Of a stretch of DNA of 37,174 nucleotides, positions 4,118 through 37,174 are shown piece after piece (position 1 is the stretch's first letter; every line of letters begins with the position of its first letter). The notes beneath the pieces are model-generated. The model was not told the DNA's origin, made no database searches, and saw only the letters and a program-made list of their open reading frames with translations. Source of the stretch: a virus (Duplodnaviria > Heunggongvirae > Uroviricota > Caudoviricetes). The position numbers and the translations under genes are program-made. The DNA lies in IMG/VR virus record IMGVR_UViG_2671181127_000013, positions 1-37,174 of that record; one strand, given 5' to 3'.

Positions 4118-4507
4118 ATGGATAAAGAAACGGAAATGGCCACTGACACTGCCGTCAGTAACGGGGAGGCTTCCGCGGTGGCAGTTGCCGCTACGGCTGC
4201 ACCTAAGAACGTGGTGAAGCTGACGGTGCCTGTTGTGCGCGGAGATGTGTCGTACAGTGAAATTAAAATCGGACCGCTGGCGAATCAGGCCGGATCGCTG
4301 CGTGGGCTGTCTTTGCTTGCGCTTTACAACATGAACTGTGATGCCATGGTCACCTGGCTTGCGCGTGTGACAGAGCCAAAACTTAAGGAGGCCGAAATGT
4401 ATGCCATGAATACGGCGGATTTTACGGCGCTGAGCTCGGCGGCGGTTAATTTTTTCGCACCCTCGGGGTCGAATGCACCGGCACCGGAGAACACGGCAGA
4501 GCCGTAA
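4118..4507 (+). CDS. E: Tail assembly chaperone E (E/E' frameshift pair)
   Basis: Position between FII and T; slippery TTTTTTC near its 3' end with an open -1 frame running to the T start. Confidence 0.7.
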   Translation: MDKETEMATDTAVSNGEASAVAVAATAAPKNVVKLTVPVVRGDVSYSEIKIGPLANQAGSLRGLSLLALYNMNCDAMVTWLARVTEPKLKEAEMYAMNTADFTALSSAAVNFFAPSGSNAPAPENTAEP

Positions 4508-4654
4508 CCTGTCTTTGCTTTGACTGCATTGAAGATCCCGTTGCGGATATTGCTGTTATTTTTAACTGGCCGCCCGCAGAGATATTTGCAATGACGCCTG
4601 CAGAGGTGGTCGCCTGGCGTGAGCGGGCGGCTGCCAGAAGCGGAAGTCACAATC

Positions 4655-7447
4655 ATGATGAATAATCTGCATATCAGGGTTGCTCTGGCGGCGGCAGACA
4701 CCCTGACACAACCTCTCAGGCGCGCCCGCGAAACCGTGGGCGCGCTTTCTGATTCCCTCCGTGAAACTCAGGACTCCATCCGCTCGCTTGAACGGCAGAG
4801 TGAAGCCTTTGCTGCGGCACAGACTAAATTTGACGAAGCCACCCGGAAAATTGCCGCTGTTCAGCAGCAACTGAACCGTCTGCAGCAGGCGGAGCGTGAG
4901 GGTACCGTGCTCAGTGAACGGCAGCGTGAAATGATGGCTTCGCTGACCACCCGGCTTGAACGTCTGAACCGGGTGAGGGATGTACATCAGCGACGCCTGG
5001 AGGATTCACGCCGGGAGCTGGAGAGACACGGTATTGCCGCAGAGGGCAGCAGTCAGACCATACAGGCAGCCATTCGCCGGACGGCAGAGTATAACGAAGA
5101 GCTGGCGCGACAGCGGCAGGCACTCGCACAGGTGACCCGTGCACAGCAACGCTATGAACAGGCGCAGGAGCGACTCGGGCGGATACGTAATGCCGGTGCG
5201 GCGGCACTGGCTGCCGGTGCAGCAGGACTTTACGCTGGCGGGCGTGCTGTTGCGCCGGTGATGGATCTCCAGCGTCATGGTGCCGTCATTGCGGCTCAGG
5301 CAGGAGAGGGCGCGTCAGATGCCGTGGGGTATACCGGGGTTATAAACCACATGGTTCATACCGGTATCACACCGGATGCACAACTGGCGGCTGAAGCTGT
5401 GGGTGCTGTCCGCTCCACTCTGGGTGGGCTGGGGGCGGTTAGTGAGAATGAACTGACCCGAATCACCCGAAAAATGCTGGATATGCAGGCCGTGATGGGG
5501 GGCGATATCCCGCAGCACATTCAGGCGGCTGCCATCATGATCAAAAACGGTCTTGCACGCAGCAGTGACGAGGCGGTTGATCTGATGGTGGCGGGCATGC
5601 AGCGCATGGGGCCGGTTATGCGCGATGAGCTGCCTGAGATCCTTCACGAGTATTCGACCCATTTTCGTAACATGGGGCTGACAGGGTCGGAAACCATGAC
5701 GCTCCTTGCGGATATGGCGCAGCAGGGGAAGTTTGCGCTGGATAAAACCGGCGATGCCATCAAGGAGTTCAGTATTCGCGGCTCCGATATGTCAAAGGCG
5801 AGTGCTGAAGCGTATGCGCTTATCGGGCTGGATGCAGCCAGGATGTCATCGGCTGTAGCCAGTGGTGGAACGGCTGCACGGGCTGCGCTGCAGAAAACAG
5901 CCTCGGGTCTGTTGCAGATCGTCGATCCGGCTGAGCGGGCCAATGCGGCCATCGCACTTTTTGGTACACCGGTTGAAGATCTGTCTGTCGATCAAATCCC
6001 TGCCTTTCTTGGCGCGCTGGCGCGGGTGTCTGACCGTATGGCTGACGTGTCTGGTGTGGCGGACCGGATGGGGCAAACCCTGCGTGACAATCTGAGTGGT
6101 GATGTGGCGCGGCTTACCGGGACGTTCAGCGCGCTGAGAAGTGGGATTATCGGGGAGATTACGGACGATCTGCGTGGGCTTGTCCGGATGGCCACAGCGT
6201 GGGGTGAGCGTCTGCAGGCGTGGGTGAATGCGCATCCGGAACTGGTGCGAATGATTGCGCTGACGACGGGAGCGGTGCTGGCGTTAACCACAGCGATGGG
6301 GGCGTTGTCCGTTGCGGCCTGGATGGTTGTCGCACCGTTACTGAAACTGCGTCTGGGGCTTGCCCTGCTTCGCGCGATCCCGGCCGGACTCTCTGTTGCC
6401 GGTACGCTGTTTGGCGGACTGACGGGTGTGATTTCAGCCGTGGGGGCTGCGCTGGGGGCGCTGACCTGGCCGGTTGTGGTGGCGGTGGGAGCCCTGGTCG
6501 GTGGTGCTCTGCTGATCTGGCGCTACTGGGATCGGGTCAGGGCGTTTGTGAGCGGATTTATTGAAGGGGTACAGTCAGCACTGGCGCCCTTCATGGCGAC
6601 AGCCTCCCGTTTTGCGCCGCTGCTGGATCTGGTTTCAGGGGCACTGTCCCGTATTCTGGGATGGTTTAAATCCCTGTTAACGCCGGTCTCCTCCACGCGT
6701 GATTTGCTTGAGCAGTGCACCTCTGCCGGGCAGACGTTCGGGAGCACTCTGGCCGGTGCGTTAGCCACGGTTTTTTCGCCCCTGAAAGCTCTGATTGACG
6801 GTCTGGCGTGGGTGCTGGAAAAACTCGGTGTTCTGCCCGGTGAAGCTGAGCGGGTTAAGCGAAAACTGGATGAGGCCCGTAAAACGCCGGTGGCATGGGA
6901 GTGGGATCCGGAACAGAAAAAAATGGTTCAGAAGGCGTGGCACTGGTCGCCTCCTGGTGGGGCCAGTGTGCCTTCCGGCGCCTCCGGTACACAGCCTCCG
7001 CCGGTGGCGCTCCCTGCGGGGATAGCGCCGGACGGTAACCGTAACGTTCTCCGTCACCTGAAAGGCATTGAGGGGAATACCGGTGGTCTGCTGGCTGAAA
7101 ACCGTAAACGTATCGGACCCGGAGATATTGTGTTTAAACATCTTCCACGGGCGCTGGCGGTCCGGGGGCAGTGGCATGAACCTGTCGTTGCGCCGTCTTC
7201 CGGCGGAATGCGCGCGCTGCCACAGGAGGAGATTCAGGTGCAGCAATGGCCGACGGCACGCCCGGCGCCACGAATGCACCAGCAGGAAACCTTCGCCAGC
7301 GCCTTTCAGGGGGAGATACATGTGCATCTTCACGGGGTGAGTTCGTATAATCCCCGGGAACTGGCGCGCATGGTTGGTGACGCTGTCAGGGCGGAAATGA
7401 ACAGAATGGCACGTGCCGGAACCGGCAGCTTCCGCGATCGCGACTGA
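4655..7447 (+). CDS. T: Tail tape measure protein T
   Basis: About 930 aa, coiled-coil N-terminal region, central Ala/Gly-rich hydrophobic segments; start chosen at ATGATG 4655 rather than the GTG at 4619. Confidence 0.85.
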   Translation: MMNNLHIRVALAAADTLTQPLRRARETVGALSDSLRETQDSIRSLERQSEAFAAAQTKFDEATRKIAAVQQQLNRLQQAEREGTVLSERQREMMASLTTRLERLNRVRDVHQRRLEDSRRELERHGIAAEGSSQTIQAAIRRTAEYNEELARQRQALAQVTRAQQRYEQAQERLGRIRNAGAAALAAGAAGLYAGGRAVAPVMDLQRHGAVIAAQAGEGASDAVGYTGVINHMVHTGITPDAQLAAEAVGAVRSTLGGLGAVSENELTRITRKMLDMQAVMGGDIPQHIQAAAIMIKNGLARSSDEAVDLMVAGMQRMGPVMRDELPEILHEYSTHFRNMGLTGSETMTLLADMAQQGKFALDKTGDAIKEFSIRGSDMSKASAEAYALIGLDAARMSSAVASGGTAARAALQKTASGLLQIVDPAERANAAIALFGTPVEDLSVDQIPAFLGALARVSDRMADVSGVADRMGQTLRDNLSGDVARLTGTFSALRSGIIGEITDDLRGLVRMATAWGERLQAWVNAHPELVRMIALTTGAVLALTTAMGALSVAAWMVVAPLLKLRLGLALLRAIPAGLSVAGTLFGGLTGVISAVGAALGALTWPVVVAVGALVGGALLIWRYWDRVRAFVSGFIEGVQSALAPFMATASRFAPLLDLVSGALSRILGWFKSLLTPVSSTRDLLEQCTSAGQTFGSTLAGALATVFSPLKALIDGLAWVLEKLGVLPGEAERVKRKLDEARKTPVAWEWDPEQKKMVQKAWHWSPPGGASVPSGASGTQPPPVALPAGIAPDGNRNVLRHLKGIEGNTGGLLAENRKRIGPGDIVFKHLPRALAVRGQWHEPVVAPSSGGMRALPQEEIQVQQWPTARPAPRMHQQETFASAFQGEIHVHLHGVSSYNPRELARMVGDAVRAEMNRMARAGTGSFRDRD

Positions 7448-26679: not shown

Positions 26680-27043
26680 AACTTGCTATGGCCGCCTTGC
26701 GGTTAATGCGCTTCATCGCCCTGGCTAAATCTTCGTTGTGTTTCCTGATATCCTTTTCGTGATATGCCTTCATGATCCTCCCGGCTGGCGTCAGTGGTTC
26801 TGGTGCTCCCGTGTTCCTCAGTCTCAGGGCTGCGATAAAGTCGCCGCTGTCTCCCCATGGTCTGGCGTTCAGGATGTCGGCAGTCATACTTTCGGTACTC
26901 CTGTCTGGACGGGCTATGGTGATTTCCAGCTGGTCACCTGGCTGCGGTCTTCTTATCAGTCCTCTCAGCGTCAGCGCCGGTAATCTCTTGGTCATGACGA
27001 CGCTGAACTCTCGTTGCTGAAGCGTGCAGTTGAATCGCGTCAT
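26642..27043 (-). CDS. Hypothetical protein (133 aa) downstream of A
   Basis: ORF overlapping the end of gene A by 4 nt. Confidence 0.4.
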   Translation of the reverse strand: MTRFNCTLQQREFSVVMTKRLPALTLRGLIRRPQPGDQLEITIARPDRSTESMTADILNARPWGDSGDFIAALRLRNTGAPEPLTPAGRIMKAYHEKDIRKHNEDLARAMKRINRKAAIASYVHSAARKQHRK

Positions 27044-29562
27044 TCATCCCCCTTCAGCTGTGCTACTTCCTTCAGGCTTCCGGTGCTTTCATCCCAGTGA
27101 ACAATCCGCCCGTCAGGCAGGCGAACGCGCGCCCCGCGATACACGGAAAGCGCCGCACTACTGTGTAACTCCTCGCCCGTTGTACTCAGAGTACTGGCGA
27201 TCAACCTGGTGGTCATATCCGGTTTTGCGAGTGCCGCACCGGCATATACCACGCCTTCAGGTGCGGGGAACCCGCCGCTGTTTGCGGTTTTTGTGGATTT
27301 CTGGTCATTTTTCAGCTGTTGGGTGAGCTGTTTTCTCTGTACTGGAGTCAGTGACCTTAACCACTCACCCGGATCACCTTCCGGTACGATTAGTTTTTGT
27401 TCTTTCCTCCCTTCCGGTGGTGGTGTTTTGTCCGTTTCGTTGTTTGTTTTTTCATCATGGCGACAGTTATTGCCACGAGTCCAAGGTGCGGCGAAGCCGC
27501 CCCCAACGTCAAAATCCTCGTCCGTGCTGTTGTCGGCTTTCGCTTCTTTTCTGACCAGTTTCCACTCGTCCGGATGGGTGCAGATGGTGTAGCGCTCGCC
27601 GAGCGACGGGGCACAAATTCCGTAGATGCGCTGCGGGAATTCGCCGTAGTCGTTGGCCTCATCTGCGGTTTCGTATGCGGTGCGGATCAGGTACAGGTTG
27701 CGTGGAATGAGCACGCCGCCCTGACGGTTGATGTAGGTGGCAAAACACCCCACGTCAGCGGCGGCCAGAATGGCGTCAATGTCGTCATGGTCCAGGCGCT
27801 TCGGTGATGCGGGGTTACGCTCCATTTGTCCGGCAAGGCGGCGGAGTTCACGCCATACCTGGCGGGGCGGGATACCGAAGAACTGGAACTGCCGGATGCG
27901 GTGGAGACTCGCCCAGGCAATGGCGTTTTCCACGGTTTCCGCCATGGTTTTTCCCGATTCTTTATCGGCGTAAGGTTTGCCGGTTTTCGGGTCATTGTCG
28001 TGAAAGGTGCTGGCGTCCAGGTTCTTGCCAATATAGGTTGCGATGTAGCTTGCCGGTGTGCCTTTTGCCGGGTCGATTTTTTCGCACTTGAAGCGCGGAG
28101 AAATATCATTCCCCAGTTCTGCGCGATCTGATTTGATTGCTGCGTCACGCATGATTTCAATGATGCGTTCTTCATTGTCCGGGGCGGTGAATACCAGCAT
28201 GTGCCAGTGCGGTGTGCCGTCATGGTGTGGCTCAACGGTGCGCACCCCGTACCAGCTCAGGCCTTCTTTGTTGAGTTTTTTTCTTGCAGCTGCAAAGACG
28301 TCGTAAACCAGATAATCACTGGCATCGCGCACGGTGGCACCGTTGTATTTCGGGTTCAGGCTGCCGTCCTCGTTTACGCTGTGAAAGCGGGAAGGGCAGG
28401 TCACTGTCACGAAGAACGCGGAGTCACCACGCGATTCGGCGACCTGTTCCATCCCTCTGACGCAGGCCATCATCTCGTTGCGGCGGTTGCGCGGATTCCC
28501 CAGCCCTGACCAGTACACGTCCTCCAGGCTCAGGCGTTCACCGTCTTCGTTTTCAATGTCCCAGCTTTTGAGAAAATCACGGGTGCGCTGGCGTTTCTCC
28601 CGGAATTCCTGGAGTGACTCATGGCTGATGTAGGGGGATGCCTTGCGCGATACTCTTCCGGCGGCACGCAGTAATTCCTCCCGCCAGAGATCAGCGAGGT
28701 GGCGCAGCTGGTTGTTCCACCAGGTGGCGCAGGTGATACGCATTACCGCGCCCGGTACCAGTTCAGGGTCTGGTGCCGTGCGGCGGTCACGTCTGATCTC
28801 GAGTGACGGCCAGTATGGTGGGTTCACGCCCAGTTTTATTGCCATGCGCGCCAGCTGCTGGTAAGTCAGCAACCAGGTAAACAGGTTATCGTCGCCTTTT
28901 CCTGTCCGCTCAGTAACTTCATCACATATGCGTTCCAGTTCGGTGGAAAATGCCGCCGCCGTTAGTGTGGCAAGGCGCTGAATTTGATCACGGTTGAGTT
29001 GTGGCAGCATGAGTAATTCATCAAGGCGATGACGCGCTGCGGTGGCTTTGAATGCCGTCGTGGCGAAGCATTCATTCACCTGTTCGATGCGTTTCAGGCG
29101 TGTGCGCAGTCCACGGCGAACGAAGTTATCGGCCACGTGAGTGTTGTTGTTTTTCACGCCTTCATTGCGGGCGCTTTGTTGTTTGCGGTTTAAACGCGCC
29201 AGATCACGAATGAGCACGTTGCCAAGAAACGAGGGCAGGGTGCGAAGTTCTGCCATGGCTTCCGATACCAGCGTTGGCGGATTTTCTCGTTTGTGTCTCG
29301 CCAGTTTTTCCAGTCTGATCCGGCGCTCTTCGTCGTGGTGAAGATGCGAATTAATTCGCTTGCCTTCGTCTGTGTTTGTCAGGAAGGAGACGGTTTCTTC
29401 ATCCAGTCTGGCATCAATGCGAATGTCTTCGTTGATGTAGCTCTGAATGGCCTGGCGTAATGCGGTTGGTTGCGCTCTGCCGAACGTTTCAGGATCGATA
29501 ACCGGTAGCGGGGCGTTCCACGGGTACGCCAGTTGTGCGTTATGGTCGCTCATGCGTCGCAC
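27040..29562 (-). CDS. A: Replication initiation protein A (rolling-circle nickase)
   Basis: 840 aa with GTPHWHMLVF (HxH metal-binding motif of gpA-type initiators). Confidence 0.9.
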   Translation of the reverse strand: MRRMSDHNAQLAYPWNAPLPVIDPETFGRAQPTALRQAIQSYINEDIRIDARLDEETVSFLTNTDEGKRINSHLHHDEERRIRLEKLARHKRENPPTLVSEAMAELRTLPSFLGNVLIRDLARLNRKQQSARNEGVKNNNTHVADNFVRRGLRTRLKRIEQVNECFATTAFKATAARHRLDELLMLPQLNRDQIQRLATLTAAAFSTELERICDEVTERTGKGDDNLFTWLLTYQQLARMAIKLGVNPPYWPSLEIRRDRRTAPDPELVPGAVMRITCATWWNNQLRHLADLWREELLRAAGRVSRKASPYISHESLQEFREKRQRTRDFLKSWDIENEDGERLSLEDVYWSGLGNPRNRRNEMMACVRGMEQVAESRGDSAFFVTVTCPSRFHSVNEDGSLNPKYNGATVRDASDYLVYDVFAAARKKLNKEGLSWYGVRTVEPHHDGTPHWHMLVFTAPDNEERIIEIMRDAAIKSDRAELGNDISPRFKCEKIDPAKGTPASYIATYIGKNLDASTFHDNDPKTGKPYADKESGKTMAETVENAIAWASLHRIRQFQFFGIPPRQVWRELRRLAGQMERNPASPKRLDHDDIDAILAAADVGCFATYINRQGGVLIPRNLYLIRTAYETADEANDYGEFPQRIYGICAPSLGERYTICTHPDEWKLVRKEAKADNSTDEDFDVGGGFAAPWTRGNNCRHDEKTNNETDKTPPPEGRKEQKLIVPEGDPGEWLRSLTPVQRKQLTQQLKNDQKSTKTANSGGFPAPEGVVYAGAALAKPDMTTRLIASTLSTTGEELHSSAALSVYRGARVRLPDGRIVHWDESTGSLKEVAQLKGDE

Positions 29563-29966
29563 TCCCCGGCAGTTGCCACCTGAAACGCCGCGCGGTACAG
29601 CACGAGAAGGCGCTGATATTCACCGATAAAGTCTTCTGCGGTGTATATGCCTTTCACGGCCACGCTGTGGGTTGTCATTTCCAGAACCAGCGCCATCTCT
29701 GATGACGACCAGCTGATGGTGGTGCTGTCGGTGCCGTTGATGTGAAATAAACCCAGTCCATCACCATCACCTTTCACGTCCACGCGGTAACGACCGTCAA
29801 CGGTGAAGGAGAAATCCCCGGATGTGGTGATGCTGCGGGCAGCCTGTTTACAGGCGCGGCGGTAATAGTCGTGCCAGTCGTTCAGGCGGGAAGCCAGCCG
29901 GGGATCCACTGCCCACATCCAGTTAAAAAAATCCTGAATATCTGAAAGTCCCTTAACGCTCTTCAT
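29550..29966 (-). CDS. Hypothetical protein (138 aa) upstream of A
   Basis: ORF overlapping the A start. Confidence 0.45.
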   Translation of the reverse strand: MKSVKGLSDIQDFFNWMWAVDPRLASRLNDWHDYYRRACKQAARSITTSGDFSFTVDGRYRVDVKGDGDGLGLFHINGTDSTTISWSSSEMALVLEMTTHSVAVKGIYTAEDFIGEYQRLLVLYRAAFQVATAGECDA

Positions 29967-30034
29967 GAGAACCTCCGGTAACAGATGTGCGGAAGCCTCC
30001 CGCGTACGGGTGCGGGATGGCTTCAGGATGTTGT

Positions 30035-30262
30035 TTAGTGGTGGTGTTGCTGGTTGATAAGGTCCTGCAGCTCCGCGAGATCATCCGCCAGGTAGCTGAA
30101 AACAGCGGCACAGTAACGGTTTGACAGAGCGTGAGTGCGCTCATGCAGCATATTGATGTGCATGATTTGCGCGACGCGTGAGGCGCGGAAAAGTCTGCGG
30201 TTGATTTCAGTGCGGATGTGAAGACGCTCAGCGCGGGCGCGCTGTTGCTTGCGGTTTGCCAT
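30035..30262 (-). CDS. Hypothetical basic protein (75 aa)
   Basis: ORF; Arg-rich N-terminus, His-rich C-terminus. Confidence 0.35.
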   Translation of the reverse strand: MANRKQQRARAERLHIRTEINRRLFRASRVAQIMHINMLHERTHALSNRYCAAVFSYLADDLAELQDLINQQHHH

Positions 30263-30441
30263 GGTGTGGCCTCTTTGCTAGTAAGTTCTGAAAACTCACC
30301 ATCCAGAGCTGCGAAACTGTGGGTGGCGAGACGTACGAGGTTCGCAGTACCGGCTAGCAAAGAACCCGGCCCGACCGAAGTCGGCCCCGTACGCCCCGCC
30401 ATTATTCTGACGCGAAAAAGACGTGGCGATACAGTACGCAC

Positions 30442-30462
30442 AAAAAAACCGCTGGCGCGGTT
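30442..30462 (-). terminator. Putative rho-independent terminator separating early-left genes from the replication module
   Basis: Minus-strand ACCGC-GCCA-GCGGT hairpin followed by T7. Confidence 0.4.
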
Positions 30463-30645
30463 GTGCGCTTTGCTAGTCGGCGGGCTGCGAAACCCGGCAC
30501 CCGTTTTATGAGATGCGGGAAAACTGTAACCCGACCAGACGAGCGCTGGCAAGCGGTTTTTGTGTTGCGTGCTGATGTGGTTAGAATGTGGCGAATTAAT
30601 ATCACCTGGCAACTGGTGATTGTCTGCATACGCGGGGTGTTTCTG

Positions 30646-31110
30646 ATGAGTGATAAGCTCCCTTCTGATTACGACATTCTTTTTGACCTGTGGTACAGCT
30701 ACTGGCTTGAACGTATTACATGTGTGTTTCACCGACGCGTTTCTGCTGCTCTGCGAATCAGCGCCTTTCTGGTTGGTGTTGCGGCGTTTGTCCTGTGTGA
30801 TTTTGTTGTGTTGGTACTCTTCAGTGTGGTTCTGTTTCTGCTCTGGCAGTGCATGGCTGCCAGTTTTGAACGCAGGGCTGAAAAGGCTGAATGGCAGACA
30901 GTCAGTTACCAGCGCCTTATCAGTCAGCGCCATGTGATTAGTAAGGAATGCATGATTGCGCGCCTCTCCTTTGTTGAGGAAAGTGACAGTCCCATCATGG
31001 AGTGCATGATTAATCTTGCCTGGAATAAAGCCTGTGAGGCGGTTGGCAGCTCTTCGCGCAATCATGTTTCGATCTCCGGTCGGTTACTCAGTCGCCTGTG
31101 CGGCTTTTGA
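30646..31110 (+). CDS. Putative membrane protein (about 154 aa) encoded opposite to the early operon
   Basis: ATG at 30646; 30-residue hydrophobic stretch ISAFLVGVAAFVLCDFVVLVLFSVVLFLLW; possible TTGTGT-16 bp-TAGAAT promoter upstream. Confidence 0.35.
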   Translation: MSDKLPSDYDILFDLWYSYWLERITCVFHRRVSAALRISAFLVGVAAFVLCDFVVLVLFSVVLFLLWQCMAASFERRAEKAEWQTVSYQRLISQRHVISKECMIARLSFVEESDSPIMECMINLAWNKACEAVGSSSRNHVSISGRLLSRLCGF

Positions 31111-31434
31111 TTTGCCAAACAGCTGTGCGACAGTTTCGCCGGCCGCCCGATTTTCCGGGAATGACACCGGCATGTTCAGCTTGAGTGCCATTGCGTACTC
31201 AGCCCGTGCGCCAGCGGACTCTTCCCATCCATCCAGTAAGTAAATGGCATCGGCACACATGAGCATCGGAATACAAATGCTCATGTACTGCTGCTGGCTT
31301 AATCCGTCAGGCAGCACGGCAGGATTAAGAACGATGTTTCCGGCGCACCGAAGTTTCAGGTCCTCCACGCAAAATGCCGTCCTGTTGTGGTCTTTGCATC
31401 CGGTCATGGGACCGGCGATATAAATCACTGCCAT
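31084..31434 (-). CDS. DUF4406-family protein (nucleoside 2-deoxyribosyltransferase-like fold)
   Basis: N-terminal VIYIAGPMTG motif typical of DUF4406. Confidence 0.5.
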   Translation of the reverse strand: MAVIYIAGPMTGCKDHNRTAFCVEDLKLRCAGNIVLNPAVLPDGLSQQQYMSICIPMLMCADAIYLLDGWEESAGARAEYAMALKLNMPVSFPENRAAGETVAQLFGKSKAAQATE

Positions 31435-31911: not shown

Positions 31912-32892
31912 TCACGTACTGGCAGGGGTAAACATCACGCTGTAAGTTGCATCTCCCGTCACAGGTCCGCAGTCCGGGCAGTAGCCACCGCCATAGTGAC
32001 CGCAGGCGTTGCACTGTCTCAGGGTGGCGATAACTTCCGGTGCTGGTTCGCGGGTTCTTGCTCCAACGCTTCGTGGTGCCTGTATGCAGTTCATCCGGTA
32101 ACCCCGATAAATGCGTCTGGTTTCCGGTGTGTCGGAATTGGAGATGGTGATTCTGGTCATGCCGCCCGTTTCCTGCGAAAGGCGGTCAAGTGCTGCCCTC
32201 AGGCGAACGTGCTCGTGTTCATCGAATGGTTTTCCGTAGGCGGTGAAATTGCCCTCGCCACTGAACCGCAGGTAAGGGGGATCGCAGTACACGCAAAGCG
32301 TGTTGCCCATGCCGAACAGGTGACTGGCAGAGCTCAGCGTATCCTTAAAATCTGCGTGGATAAGCAGCGTTTGGGTGCTGTTTGCCTTGTCTGCAAATGC
32401 GCGGATTTCCCGCTCAGGGAAGTAGGGTTTTCGGTAGCCGCCGAAAGGCACGTTAAAATCACCTTTTCCGTTCACCCGGTACAGGCCATTAAAACAGTGC
32501 CGGTTGAGGTACAAAAACATGGCGGCCAGTCGCAGTTCACGGCGGTCGCTTATTCCCGTTCTGCTACTCAGGAAGGCATGATTCTCTGCGTTAAAGGTTT
32601 CGCGAATGATGAGATAGTCACCCCTGTTGTTGTGGTTCAGGAACAGGGTTTTCGCCTCGTCGATCAGACTGTCGGTGTTGTCCCGTGCTGCCCGCCAGAA
32701 ATTAATCAGCGCACCATTGGAATCACCCAGGATGTAACGCTTGTAACTGGTGTTCATGAATACCGATGCGCCACCCACGAACGGTTCAACCAGGCAGTCA
32801 GCTTCTGGCAGATGCGCCTTCAGTGTGTTCATGATGCGGCTTTTGCCACCCACCCATTTCAGCGGTGTGCCGGATAACAGTTCTTTGCTCAT
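31912..32892 (-). CDS. DNA adenine N6-methyltransferase (Dam/D12 class) with C-terminal Cys-rich extension
   Basis: LKWVGGK N-terminal motif and DPPY catalytic motif; C-terminal CNACGHYGGGYCPDCG. Confidence 0.85.
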   Translation of the reverse strand: MSKELLSGTPLKWVGGKSRIMNTLKAHLPEADCLVEPFVGGASVFMNTSYKRYILGDSNGALINFWRAARDNTDSLIDEAKTLFLNHNNRGDYLIIRETFNAENHAFLSSRTGISDRRELRLAAMFLYLNRHCFNGLYRVNGKGDFNVPFGGYRKPYFPEREIRAFADKANSTQTLLIHADFKDTLSSASHLFGMGNTLCVYCDPPYLRFSGEGNFTAYGKPFDEHEHVRLRAALDRLSQETGGMTRITISNSDTPETRRIYRGYRMNCIQAPRSVGARTREPAPEVIATLRQCNACGHYGGGYCPDCGPVTGDATYSVMFTPAST

Positions 32893-33116
32893 AACGCGGC
32901 CTCTTTGTTATAGGTTTCGTGCGTTAATAAATCCCATGACTTCCCGTTGTTTTTGCTCAGTAATCGCCAGCGAAAACCGATTCTTATTACCAGGTAGTCG
33001 TGGGGTTTTATACGTGAAAAATTCCGCACGCCGTCGCGGAATAAACGCAGCGATGCGCGGGCTTTTCTTTCCACGTTCAGGGGGGGGCAGCAACACACAT
33101 TCAGGATGGCGGCCAT
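32889..33116 (-). CDS. Hypothetical protein (75 aa)
   Basis: ORF coupled to the downstream methyltransferase. Confidence 0.35.
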   Translation of the reverse strand: MAAILNVCCCPPLNVERKARASLRLFRDGVRNFSRIKPHDYLVIRIGFRWRLLSKNNGKSWDLLTHETYNKEAAL

Positions 33117-35141: not shown

Positions 35142-35666
35142 TCACTGGTTGCCTCCACTGTATTGGTGTTGCTCCAGTTTTGACTTTCTTCCTGTGTAAA
35201 CCCGCTTTCCATTGATGGTCTGGCAGTCTTCTTTGTTTGCCGGGGAAAACTTTCTTTTCTGTCGGTCGTATGTCCAGTAGCTTTTCCAGTTGTGCCATTC
35301 TGGCGGCTCGCATTCTGGTAGTTCGTCAGCCAGCTTGTCCCACTCTCTGGCGTTAAACCACCACACGCCATCCGAATTTTCATCTTCAGGGTTTGAACGG
35401 GTCTTGTGTCCAGGCATCTGATTTCGCTGAAGCGCCACGCGCAATGCAGCTTTTGTCAACCCGATATAGGCTGCCCCTTTTTCAAGTGAGCAAAGTCCGG
35501 CTACCGGGCCATCCAGTCGCAAGGTTGCCCCTTTTTTGTAGGTGCGTTTTTTCTTTTCCTCTTGGTGTTCATCGTCGTTTGTCGCGCCAACGGATTCGGT
35601 GATGCTGTCGTTTTCCTGAAGGGCTTGTGTGTCAGATAACTCTTTATCGGCAATTGACTTCCGCAT
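35142..35666 (-). CDS. Cox-like excisionase/regulator with extended acidic N-terminus (174 aa)
   Basis: First gene of the early operon, divergent from C; AAYIGLTKAALRVALQRNQMPG...VWWFNAREW resembles the Cox HTH region. Confidence 0.5.
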   Translation of the reverse strand: MRKSIADKELSDTQALQENDSITESVGATNDDEHQEEKKKRTYKKGATLRLDGPVAGLCSLEKGAAYIGLTKAALRVALQRNQMPGHKTRSNPEDENSDGVWWFNAREWDKLADELPECEPPEWHNWKSYWTYDRQKRKFSPANKEDCQTINGKRVYTGRKSKLEQHQYSGGNQ

Positions 35667-35770: not shown

Positions 35771-36112
35771 ATGGTTATCTTGTCAATAGACTATGCAAAA
35801 AAGCTACGTCAAATACGCAAGGCTGAAGGGCTAACGCAAAAGGAATTTGCGGATATTACGGGGTTGTCTTTAGCTGCCATAAGGAACTATGAATCAGGGC
35901 AAAAAAGCGCCAGAGCCAAAATTGTTGAGATGGTTCTCCAAGTTGATCGGTTTGAAAAATACATGATGTGGCTAATAAAAGATAAGACAATGCCTGCTGC
36001 CGGTCAGATAGCCCCGGCTCTCTCTCTTGATGGCTCCATTCAGTCGGAGGGCGATCAGGTTTCAATCGGCATTACCCAAAAATCACCCCAATCTCGTCGC
36101 AATGCTGGCTAA
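35771..36112 (+). CDS. C: Immunity repressor C (HTH)
   Basis: LTQKEFADITGLSLAAIRNYESG HTH and the GQIAPAL segment shared with the P2 C repressor. Confidence 0.8.
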   Translation: MVILSIDYAKKLRQIRKAEGLTQKEFADITGLSLAAIRNYESGQKSARAKIVEMVLQVDRFEKYMMWLIKDKTMPAAGQIAPALSLDGSIQSEGDQVSIGITQKSPQSRRNAG

Positions 36113-36181
36113 CGCTGTACATCGAGCGGGTTTCATCCCGTAGAGAGTGTACGGCTGATTCATCCGTTGGAGGGGCTAATC

Positions 36182-37174
36182 ATGTCGATTAAGCAACTCA
36201 AAGACGGGCGTTATAAGGTTGATGTAAGACCGCAAGGGACGGAAGGAAAGCGGATCCGTAAGATTTTTACCCTGAAGTCAAAGGCACAGGAGTTTGAAAG
36301 GTATGTTTTGCAGAATTTCCACGATAAACCGTGGCAGGCCAAGCCAGCTGATCAGCGTCGGTTATCCGAACTGATAGATGCCTGGTGGGTGCTTGATGGC
36401 CGGAATCAGCCTTACGGGGATACTTACAGGGTCAGGCTGGAAAAAATAAACCGTGAGATGAGGGACCCCCGCGCCAGTGAGATGACGCGAAAGTTTATGC
36501 TCGGGTATCGTTCAGATAAATTACAGGCCGGATTAATGCCCTCCAGTGTTAATCGTGATTTGTGTGCCTTGTCTGCAATGTTTACCTCGCTGATTGATGC
36601 GGATGTTTTCCATAACGAAAACCCGGTGCGTGGAATACGTAAGCTCAAGGTCAGGAATACAGAAATGGCCTTTCTTTCAGATGATGAGATTGATCGGCTG
36701 CTTGAACGACTCGAGGGGGATGCGCGTCGCGTTGCTGTTCTGTGTCTTTCCACTGGCGCAAGGTGGGGGGAAGCAGCTGGCTTACGTGGTGAGCATATCG
36801 TTGGTAACCGCGTAATGTTCTTTAACACAAAGAATGGAAAATCCCGCGCGGTTCCTGTTTCTGATACGGTGCTTTCGTTGATAAAAACCCGAAAAACCGG
36901 GCTATTGTACCAGGCTGATTACATCCGTTTTCGGGATATCCTTCAGGAGGTGAAACCGGATTTACCCAAAGGTCAGGCGACTCACGTTATGCGTCACACG
37001 TTCGCCACGCATTTCATGATGAACGGCGGAAATATCGTTACGTTACAGCGAATCCTTGGGCACGCCACGATTCAACAAACGATGACGTATGCGCATTTTT
37101 CACCGGACTTTTTACAGGATGCGATTAGCTTTAATCCGCTGGCTGATAGTGTCCATAAACTGTCCATTGACTAG
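36182..37174 (+). CDS. int: Tyrosine integrase (P2 Int family)
   Basis: 330 aa with R...HxxR...Y catalytic-domain features (LSTGARWGEAAGLRGEHI, HVMRHTFATHF, TMTYAH); ATG 36182 with GGAGGGG SD; stop is the last codon of the window. Confidence 0.9.
   Translation: MSIKQLKDGRYKVDVRPQGTEGKRIRKIFTLKSKAQEFERYVLQNFHDKPWQAKPADQRRLSELIDAWWVLDGRNQPYGDTYRVRLEKINREMRDPRASEMTRKFMLGYRSDKLQAGLMPSSVNRDLCALSAMFTSLIDADVFHNENPVRGIRKLKVRNTEMAFLSDDEIDRLLERLEGDARRVAVLCLSTGARWGEAAGLRGEHIVGNRVMFFNTKNGKSRAVPVSDTVLSLIKTRKTGLLYQADYIRFRDILQEVKPDLPKGQATHVMRHTFATHFMMNGGNIVTLQRILGHATIQQTMTYAHFSPDFLQDAISFNPLADSVHKLSID

Follow-up and report, generated by a model that had tools for sequence, protein, structure and literature searches.

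Introduction

The closest described relatives of the locus treated here are the immunity regions of the satellite phage P4 and of the phages P1 and P7. In P4, the order is PLE, seqA, CI RNA (seqB) and seqC, with the nested frames eta and kil, followed by epsilon, orf151 and alpha, and P4 epsilon derepresses the P2 helper. In P1 and P7, the immI region runs P51, a1 b1, c4, a2 b2, icd and ant; for P1, the details are established literature (Citron and Schuster 1990). Here, we analyse a 37,174-nt stretch of viral DNA, called the window below (positions 1 to 37,174 of IMG/VR record IMGVR_UViG_2671181127_000013), which is a P88-like prophage (Xuanwuvirus, P2-family) of E. coli. On its minus strand, positions 30263-30552 hold what is very probably an antisense-RNA immunity cassette of the IsrK/C4 type, corresponding to P4 seqA/CI and P1 c4. 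A 370-codon frame is open across the cassette and across a separate plus-strand gene (30646-31110) inserted next to it. The high confidence refers to this explanation as a whole, comprising the RNA cassette, the bridging frame and the separate inserted gene.

IsrK and C4 are structural homologues of P4 seqA and CI RNA (PMC3632133; PMC4825925), and P1, P7, N15 and lambdoid prophages have related RNA systems at work in them (PMC3632133; PMC4825925; PMC10111431). According to the passage of PMC10111431 that cites Forti et al. 1999, translation of P4 eta prevents termination, which lets RNA made from the upstream promoter evade immunity. Eta begins ahead of the internal promoter, with its start coupled to the gene before it, and crosses seqA, CI and seqC. 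We found no description of such a module in P88-like phages in the searchable literature.

Results

On the minus strand of the element, Rfam detects the two families of the P4 immunity region, with their order and strand unchanged. An IsrK/seqA-like leader RNA lies at 30442-30516 (RF01394, 64.5 bits against a gathering threshold of 50, E = 9.6e-12) and a C4/CI-like antisense RNA at 30319-30406 (RF01695, 82.1 bits against 45, E = 8.3e-15); the latter match covers the full model, positions 1-87 of 87. An intrinsic terminator of the leader is predicted on the same strand (stem 30462-30447 followed by U7). Upstream of the leader, a sigma-70-type promoter (30523-30552, minus strand) with the -35 hexamer TTGCCA, an 18-nt spacer and the -10 hexamer TACAGT matches the consensus at nine of 12 positions, with a predicted transcript start at about 30516. 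In every P88-like and lambdoid module, hexamers keep this spacing to the start of isrK despite differing spacers, and the site is the analogue of P4 PLE and P1 P51. C4 and isrK recur together in all six further P88-like loci, in four phages of the lambdoid group and in P4, where the matches fall at the CI and seqA positions (74.9 bits for CI RNA with the C4 model and 60.8 bits for the seqA leader with the isrK model).

An earlier sequence-only reading of the window had described this stretch as ORF-poor (poor in open reading frames, ORFs) and had considered a structured regulatory RNA as one explanation. The latter idea is confirmed, the RNA being the IsrK/seqA and C4/CI module, a family which that reading had not named; the description as ORF-poor misses two minus-strand RNA genes. 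The repeats, the minus-strand terminator, the plus-strand motif TTGTGT-16-TAGAAT and the plus-strand ORF were all recovered at, or within a few bases of, the places where it had put them.

The C4-like RNA consists of a 17-bp closing stem and two hairpins with the conserved 3' GCCACC motif visible, and on its own it folds to the Rfam structure with a minimum free energy of -47.7 kcal/mol (z = -4.35). Diverse modules were gathered through BLAST searches of phage and E. coli collections. All 27 base pairs of C4 are retained in nine modules (100% paired), and 10 of these pairs are altered on both sides. For the whole structure of C4 and isrK, 11 pairs are altered on both sides in comparison to 1-2 in slid controls.

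The repeats that first drew attention to the locus are an outer inverted repeat (TCTTTGCTAG at 30272-30281 and CTAGCAAAGA at 30354-30363), an inner inverted repeat (CTGCGAA at 30309-30315 and TTCGCAG at 30341-30347) and second direct copies of the motifs (CTTTGCTAGT at 30468-30477 and GCTGCGAAAC at 30484-30493). They far exceed chance level: all three copies of the 9-mer CTTTGCTAG in the 37-kb window lie inside the element (shuffle mean 0.19; three copies were reached in 0 of 100 shuffles), and GCTGCGAAAC occurs twice against 0.12 expected. In the RNA, these motifs become recognition segments and targets, all on the minus strand. The C4-like RNA carries the b' segment CUUUGCUAG in the loop of hairpin 2 (30354-30362) and the a' segment CUGCGAA in its 3' bulge (30341-30347). 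The first target copy lies in the isrK-like leader, with a1 (UUCGCAG, 30485-30491) and b1 (CUAGCAAAG, 30468-30476), and the second, seqC-like copy lies at 30272-30315, with a2 at 30309-30315 and b2 at 30272-30281. Thus, the "nested inverted repeats" of the sequence-only reading are C4 against a2/b2, and its "second direct copy" is a1/b1. The b2 target overlaps the Shine-Dalgarno (SD) sequence AAGAGG (30270-30275), nine bases before the ATG of a 75-amino-acid (aa) gene. Pairing extends over 9-10 nt for b' and 7 nt for a', each with both targets, and the predicted duplex energies are -21.3 kcal/mol for b'-b2, -15.4 kcal/mol for b'-b1 and -10.5 kcal/mol for a'-a2.

The decisive test of this assignment is the three-way co-variation of the boxes. 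Among nine non-identical modules, no two b' loops are alike and the a' bulge takes five forms, and in each module both target copies match its own boxes. Cognate b matches have mean lengths of 8.7 and 9.4 nt, compared with 4.7 nt for non-cognate combinations. Boxes were matched register-free, cognate versus non-cognate, since the MAFFT alignment of whole modules mis-registers b2 in the lambdoid sequences. Because boxes and both targets co-vary in the nine modules, the repeats are antisense recognition boxes together with two target copies. The a' box of the window is also found in an Stx1 phage whose b' box differs, and three P88-like modules have the a' box GUGGAAA in common and three different b' loops. 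Such re-assortment of boxes suggests modular immunity specificities.

A further inverted repeat of 17 nt (30440-30456 versus 30549-30565, 88% complementary) allows a segment just upstream of the isrK promoter to pair with the 3' half and the U-tract of the isrK terminator. AAAAACCGC is retained in all P88-like loci. As the upstream segment is present only in transcripts that come from upstream, it might act as an antiterminator.

Downstream of the RNA region, the minus strand encodes the 75-aa protein, a 138-aa protein and the replication endonuclease gpA. The 75-aa gene (30035-30262) matches Pfam PF25738 "Derepression" with 30.5 bits against a gathering threshold of 27, and its product shares 32% identity with P4 epsilon over 50 aa in a pairwise BLASTP comparison (E = 9e-8); on the basis of these two matches we regard it as a relative of P4 epsilon, which a tblastn search of the 75-aa protein against phages did not reach. 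The gene is under purifying selection, with a ratio of nonsynonymous to synonymous substitution rates (dN/dS) of 0.19-0.21, and by analogy its product is a putative antirepressor of a P2-type C repressor. The 138-aa gene (29550-29966, phrog_3237) overlaps the start of gpA (27040-29562, Pfam Phage_GPA, 2.2e-108) and has no similarity to P4 orf151. Nevertheless, the order of RNA module, epsilon-like gene, small gene and replication gene parallels the P4 order CI-epsilon-orf151-alpha. In lambdoid phages, the same module stands between cII and the Rha/Ant antirepressor, ahead of the replication gene O.

The whole region is spanned by an eta/Ash-like open frame of 370 codons on the minus strand (29953-31065). 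It is stop-free from 31083, and its ATG at 31065, preceded at 8 nt by GGAG, lies 18 nt past the stop codon of the preceding DUF4406 gene. From there the frame runs codon-in-register antisense to the plus-strand ORF, then crosses the promoter, isrK, C4 and, in another frame, the epsilon-like gene, and ends at 29953, just beyond the ATG of the 138-aa gene. With the isrK 5' end as reference, each of the 12 modules examined, among them P4 with eta, keeps this frame free of stops over 208 codons or more. Pfam Phage_ASH (PF10554) matches P4 eta (82.4 bits, 3.8e-23), the lambdoid frame (54.8 bits, 1.5e-14), which is in frame with the Rha/Ant antirepressor, and the 206-aa frame of P88 (27.1 bits against a threshold of 26, 6e-6). 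Despite its openness, the amino-acid sequence of the 370-aa frame is unconstrained: its dN/dS is 1.07 where it is antisense to the plus-strand ORF and 2.4-2.8 over the epsilon-like gene, whereas the overlapping genes show values of about 0.2. Since the frame is kept open while its amino acids are free to change, it looks like a frame retained for the act of translation itself, as proposed for eta. The sequence-only reading had set this ORF aside as low-complexity, which overlooks an eta/Ash-type frame that is actively kept open; the finding that would have refuted that reading, conservation showing the minus-strand ORF to be the real gene, was not made, as its amino-acid sequence is not conserved.

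The plus-strand ORF at 30646-31110 encodes a 154-aa protein (phrog_6315, 6.5e-54) with a hydrophobic stretch at about residues 30-73, which is predicted to form a two-transmembrane helical hairpin and is possibly SLATT-like (SMODS and SLOG-associating 2TM). It is a real gene under purifying selection: an 81%-identical allele from E. coli S19-651 differs by 89 substitutions and no insertions or deletions, 47 of the 89 substitutions fall on third codon positions, and the dN/dS is 0.22. The PGAP annotation places the start further upstream (ATG 30586, 174 aa); we rejected this start because the distant homologues and protein P0005 all start at ATG 30646. A candidate promoter and 5' untranslated region occupy 30560-30645 on the plus strand, with TTGTGT (30560-30565), a 16-nt spacer and TAGAAT (30582-30587). 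This promoter is back-to-back with that of the RNA module, the two -35 hexamers being 7 bp apart. Homology to P88-like phages that do not have the ORF ends at 30582/30583, exactly where the -10 hexamer begins, which makes the gene part of a discrete insertion of about 500 bp. At its other end, the gene reaches nine codons into the 3' end of DUF4406, and a terminator-like hairpin (31090-31105, plus strand; 6-bp stem followed by TTTGATTT) is a weak candidate for a terminator of the gene. The 5' untranslated region differs by one base between the alleles and contains a perfect palindrome, ATCACC-N8-GGTGAT (30601-30620), which could be an operator or an RNA hairpin; the middle of the coding sequence differs by about 30%. 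The last ~190 nt (30916-31110), which overlap the 3' end of DUF4406 as well as the SD sequence and the start of the bridging frame, show only 8 differences between the alleles, in comparison to 80 over nt 61-300. The conservation of this 3' end could come from dual constraint or from recent recombination.

The family of this protein is small (20 representatives at 50% identity among 1.84 billion proteins; 37 clusters) and is found in E. coli, Yersinia, Citrobacter, Serratia and Vibrio. At 14 loci it is always a lone gene in a prophage, oriented opposite to its neighbours, and it stands inside P2- or 186-like early operons, beside a lambdoid repressor or between the Q antiterminator and the lysis genes. 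Judged from the sequences, this lone, inverted and patchy placement is the signature of a moron, as we call the gene in the following. The RNA stretch, related lambdoid modules included, occurs in 1237 of 5426 complete E. coli genomes (~23%), and the ORF in 25 of the 5426; among the 1237 genomes with the flanking RNA module, 25 carry it. For this reason we consider the moron independent of the RNA module, at variance with the sequence-only reading, which had treated the two as one unit. Its further suggestion of a lysogen-expressed moron is consistent with a real, lone and inverted prophage gene. By analogy, the moron is probably expressed in the lysogen from its own promoter.

A confident AlphaFold2 model built from a 30-sequence alignment (predicted local distance difference test, pLDDT, 83.7; predicted template modelling score, pTM, 0.74) shows two long helices that form the hydrophobic hairpin, followed by three short helices. 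In a Foldseek search of BFVD, seven of the top 30 matches are SLATT proteins, although the similarity is weak (best E = 0.04, TM-score ~0.5). Profile signals in other members of the family stay below threshold as well: NCBIfam SLATT_4 (E = 0.0024, 17.7 bits against a cut-off of 55, in P0040), Pfam SLATT_fungal (E = 0.0062), DUF4231 (E = 0.061) and SLATT_3 (E = 0.64). The window protein itself is matched by none of the SLATT profiles, and no Pfam or NCBIfam family passes its curated cut-off. PADLOC gave no match for the moron, no relative was found in the PDB, and no partner sensor or nucleotide-signalling gene was found near the loci of the family. That the moron acts at the membrane against other phages is, by analogy, a reasonable guess only.

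The overlap between moron and bridging frame leaves a mark on codon usage. A minus-strand stop codon in this register requires a TTA, CTA or TCA codon in the plus-strand gene. Of these, the window moron has a single one among its 37 leucine and serine codons, and this one is the stop codon of DUF4406. When the gene was resampled synonymously with the codon usage of the prophage, about four stops were expected, and the probability of finding none was 0.012. For the Yersinia locus and two Vibrio loci, 7-10 antisense stops were expected and none was seen (P <= 1e-4); altogether, these tests covered five of the six loci embedded in early operons (4-10 stops expected). The contrast between sites is complete across the 14 loci: antisense stops are absent from six of six copies within P2-family early operons, whereas eight of eight copies beside a repressor or downstream of the Q antiterminator have 6-18 of them at similar G+C content. 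Pairwise identity among the embedded proteins amounts to only 20-52% once the pair of E. coli alleles is set aside, and with such divergence the openness of the antisense frame must be maintained rather than passively inherited. At the embedded loci, the open frame starts 8-75 nt past the stop of the upstream gene or overlaps it, usually behind an SD-like motif, and its end falls in a range from 135 nt ahead of the following early gene to 14 nt within it. In the Yersinia phage vB_YenM_42.18, the annotated gene gp08 (4309-4974, minus strand) lies opposite a conserved ORF of the family (4495-4965, plus strand; 31% identical to the window protein); here, the bridging frame has been annotated instead of the real gene.

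The remaining genes place the module in the prophage. At the right end of the window, a tyrosine integrase (36167-37174, plus strand), a helix-turn-helix C-type repressor (35771-36112, plus strand) and a Cox-like gene (35142-35666, minus strand), the first of the early operon, show that the minus strand is the lytic direction. Leftward after cox, the early operon encodes DUF4761, a 3'-5' exonuclease, a ParE-like protein, a Dam methylase, two small proteins and DUF4406 (31084-31434, minus strand), the last early gene before the region studied. The ParE-like toxin-domain gene (32889-33116, minus strand; Pfam PF24732, 3.7e-18) adjoins the Dam methylase gene and has no obvious antitoxin partner nearby. 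Among sequenced phages, the nearest are P88 and further members of Xuanwuvirus (Peduoviridae). A stretch identical to that of the window lies in the E. coli JNEC-KY203 chromosome; in this strain (locus L002, 9647-11658) an IS1 cuts the prophage beside ycaD, and the cox/C/integrase end, which the window retains, is missing. A search of genome contigs with the 75-aa protein gave only two loci. The record NZ_JBQPOM010000071.1 is titled Vagococcus sp., a Gram-positive genus, and carries P88-like enterobacterial prophage DNA with a derepression protein 81% identical to that of the window, together with C4 and isrK; it is probably a contamination or mislabelled. Public annotation over C4/isrK DNA is inconsistent among loci (L001 3777-3965; L003 2241-2429; L005 2194-2811; L009 948-2099), where a plus-strand 62-aa "hypothetical protein", an "ash family protein" replacing the derepression gene, a "transcriptional regulator" or a long "antirepressor" is called, and the RNA genes themselves are unannotated in those records.

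Discussion

Compared with P4, the locus has in common a frame that is open across the RNAs, an epsilon homologue downstream, replication genes in last position and a frame start coupled to the preceding gene. It differs from the P4 satellite in that the host element is a complete phage of the P2 family that has a C/cox switch of its own, and its replication gene is gpA, an HUH endonuclease, instead of the alpha primase. Moreover, the position of kil, directly behind the targets, is taken by the epsilon-like gene, which is not read in the register of the eta-like frame; the recognition boxes are different, and the eta-like frame is lengthened through the inverted moron. The immI region of P1 and P7 resembles the locus in the loop and bulge boxes of a C4-family RNA that face duplicated targets upstream and downstream, in a b2 target that lies over the ribosome-binding site of the first, small gene, and in an antirepressor-type regulated product. 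In contrast to P1 and P7, the first gene is epsilon-like and not icd, an Ant homologue is missing, the replication genes would be co-controlled and the genome is of the P2 type. Gifsy-1 (isrK-STnc1160-orf45-anrP) and lambdoid prophages (cro-cII-isrK-C4-rha/ant) likewise combine a leader with terminator and read-through, a processed C4-like RNA and an antirepressor gene. They depart from the window in that the long lambdoid frame is in frame with Rha/Ant and the short RNA of Gifsy-1 activates translation. The moron, for its part, is similar to SLATT effectors, lambda RexB and P22 SieB in being a lone inverted prophage gene of about 150 aa, and in the model its layout of N-terminal helix, two-transmembrane hairpin and C-terminal helices corresponds to that of SLATT proteins. 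Unlike curated SLATT proteins, its family gives SLATT signals below thresholds only and has no partner sensor gene nearby and no match in PADLOC.

By analogy with P4 and P1, we propose that a constitutive internal promoter yields a short IsrK/seqA-like leader that would mostly end at its own terminator, and that read-through transcripts would yield the C4/CI-like RNA, which would be cut out and remain stable. Its b' loop and a' bulge would pair with a1/b1 in the leader and with a2/b2 over the ribosome-binding site of the first gene. Thus, in the lysogen the C4-like RNA should block the antirepressor-like gene and thereby the replication genes: translation of the epsilon-like antirepressor would be prevented, the untranslated RNA would terminate, and the 138-aa gene and gene A would be off. 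During lytic growth, transcripts from the early promoter on the cox side would be translated continuously and would therefore be insensitive to the immunity RNA and to Rho. Ribosomes leaving the DUF4406 gene could re-start on the 370-codon frame and pass over the terminator of the leader, the C4 sequence and the target boxes before stopping where the 138-aa gene, itself coupled to gene A, begins. The moron is an unrelated inverted insertion in the 5' part of the eta-like frame. The suggestion of the sequence-only reading that the region is an operon boundary element fits the internal promoter and the leader terminator, but not an early operon that seems built for read-through.

Several points weigh against this explanation. 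The isrK fold alone is no stabler than that of shuffled sequences (z = -0.6) and its helices co-vary little, so that the isrK part is identified by its Rfam score, terminator and position, with weaker support from folding and co-variation. The promoter calls are consensus matches only; the -35 hexamer of the moron, TTGTGT, agrees with the consensus at three of six positions, and a promoter scan did not list the plus-strand site TTGTGT-16-TAGAAT. Neither the 370-aa frame of the window nor the frame of locus L003 matches Phage_ASH at E <= 0.01. In addition, the first regulated gene is out of frame with the eta-like frame, unlike P4 kil, and the P4 mechanism may not be transferable in detail. Finally, the short IsrK of Gifsy-1 activates and does not repress (PMC4825925), which makes the sign of the leader's contribution uncertain.

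The last point leads to the most serious alternative, namely that the leader acts like Gifsy-1 IsrK, as a short RNA in trans that is an activator or a C4 sponge, with a1/b1 titrating C4 or the RNA remodelling the long transcript so that the first gene becomes translated, and that the module is an inducible activator of the antirepressor and not a lysogenic lock. The leader is a full-length member of the isrK family, a1/b1 are exact decoys of a2/b2, and in Gifsy-1 the short IsrK makes the read-through mRNA translatable (PMC4825925). We nevertheless think this possible but rather unlikely, because the same architecture represses in P4 and P1 and because the pairing b'-b2 is predicted to be stronger than b'-b1; the activator and the lysogenic-lock readings are not mutually exclusive. 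A different objection concerns the 370-aa minus-strand ORF, or a ~205-aa Ash-like core of it, which could be an Eta/Ash regulator whose sequence matters, so that its openness would be that of any coding frame. The frame is indeed open in all 12 modules and has a good SD sequence and ATG, and Phage_ASH matches the P4 eta, lambdoid and P88 frames, in line with the PGAP label "ash family protein". These matches are, however, explicable at the nucleotide level as the similarity falls over the conserved RNA genes, the window frame fails the Pfam model, and a dN/dS of 1.07 and 2.4-2.8, against 0.2 in the overlapping genes, makes a sequence-dependent regulator improbable.

It is still less probable that the moron is a functional partner of the RNA module, either through the back-to-back promoters or as a C4-target mRNA, the two forming one immunity or exclusion unit. 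The divergent promoters with their closely spaced -35 hexamers and the position of the moron -10 hexamer exactly at the insertion boundary would suit such a unit, but the RNA part is far more widespread than the ORF, the family members in Yersinia, Vibrio, Serratia and Citrobacter are located elsewhere, Rfam finds neither C4 nor isrK at the Yersinia phage locus (the one such locus scanned), and the 37-kb window has no b-box copy beyond the element. Nested inverted and direct repeats also bear a superficial similarity to DNA-level elements such as operators, iterons, att sites, a transposon end or the msr/msd of a retron. We give this idea hardly any credence in view of two above-threshold Rfam matches, of compensatory helix changes that include G-U pairs and of a one-strand antisense co-variation of the boxes in nine modules, all of this in a context free of a reverse transcriptase, a transposase or replication-initiator binding. 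The retron, iteron, operator and att readings were rejected on the same grounds, since no reverse transcriptase or similar gene is present and RNA co-variation explains the repeats. A false lead is thereby disposed of, as the repeats are the a/b boxes familiar from C4/CI antisense-RNA immunity, which Rfam detects.

Returning to the RNA cassette with its bridging frame, the RNA element is of a known kind and the novel part is the stop-free bridging frame, of which we found no description in the searchable literature. We hypothesize that in morons inserted into P2-family early operons, leucine and serine codons are selected against TTA, CTA and TCA, and that the opposite strand thereby serves as an amino-acid-unconstrained ribosome bridge, a general protection from Rho-dependent polarity; our confidence in this general claim is evenly divided between acceptance and doubt. 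The simplest reading of the distribution of antisense stops is that early-operon mRNA needs translation across an inverted insertion, whereas late operons transcribed by Q-modified polymerase do not.

In conclusion, a P4-style immunity cassette lies inside a helper-type P2-family phage that is very common in E. coli, which bears on the exchange between satellites and helpers, or on the mimicry, of immunity and derepression functions. At least nine immunity specificities would arise by re-assorting two short boxes. For annotators, the locus is a warning, as currently either strand is called, or spurious ORFs are placed over the RNA genes. If the bridging frame is translated, it would provide a simple and testable rule for how operons tolerate inverted insertions, one that recurs in prophages of E. 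coli, Yersinia and Vibrio, and, if true, the synonymous sites of a gene would be shaped by the needs of the other strand.

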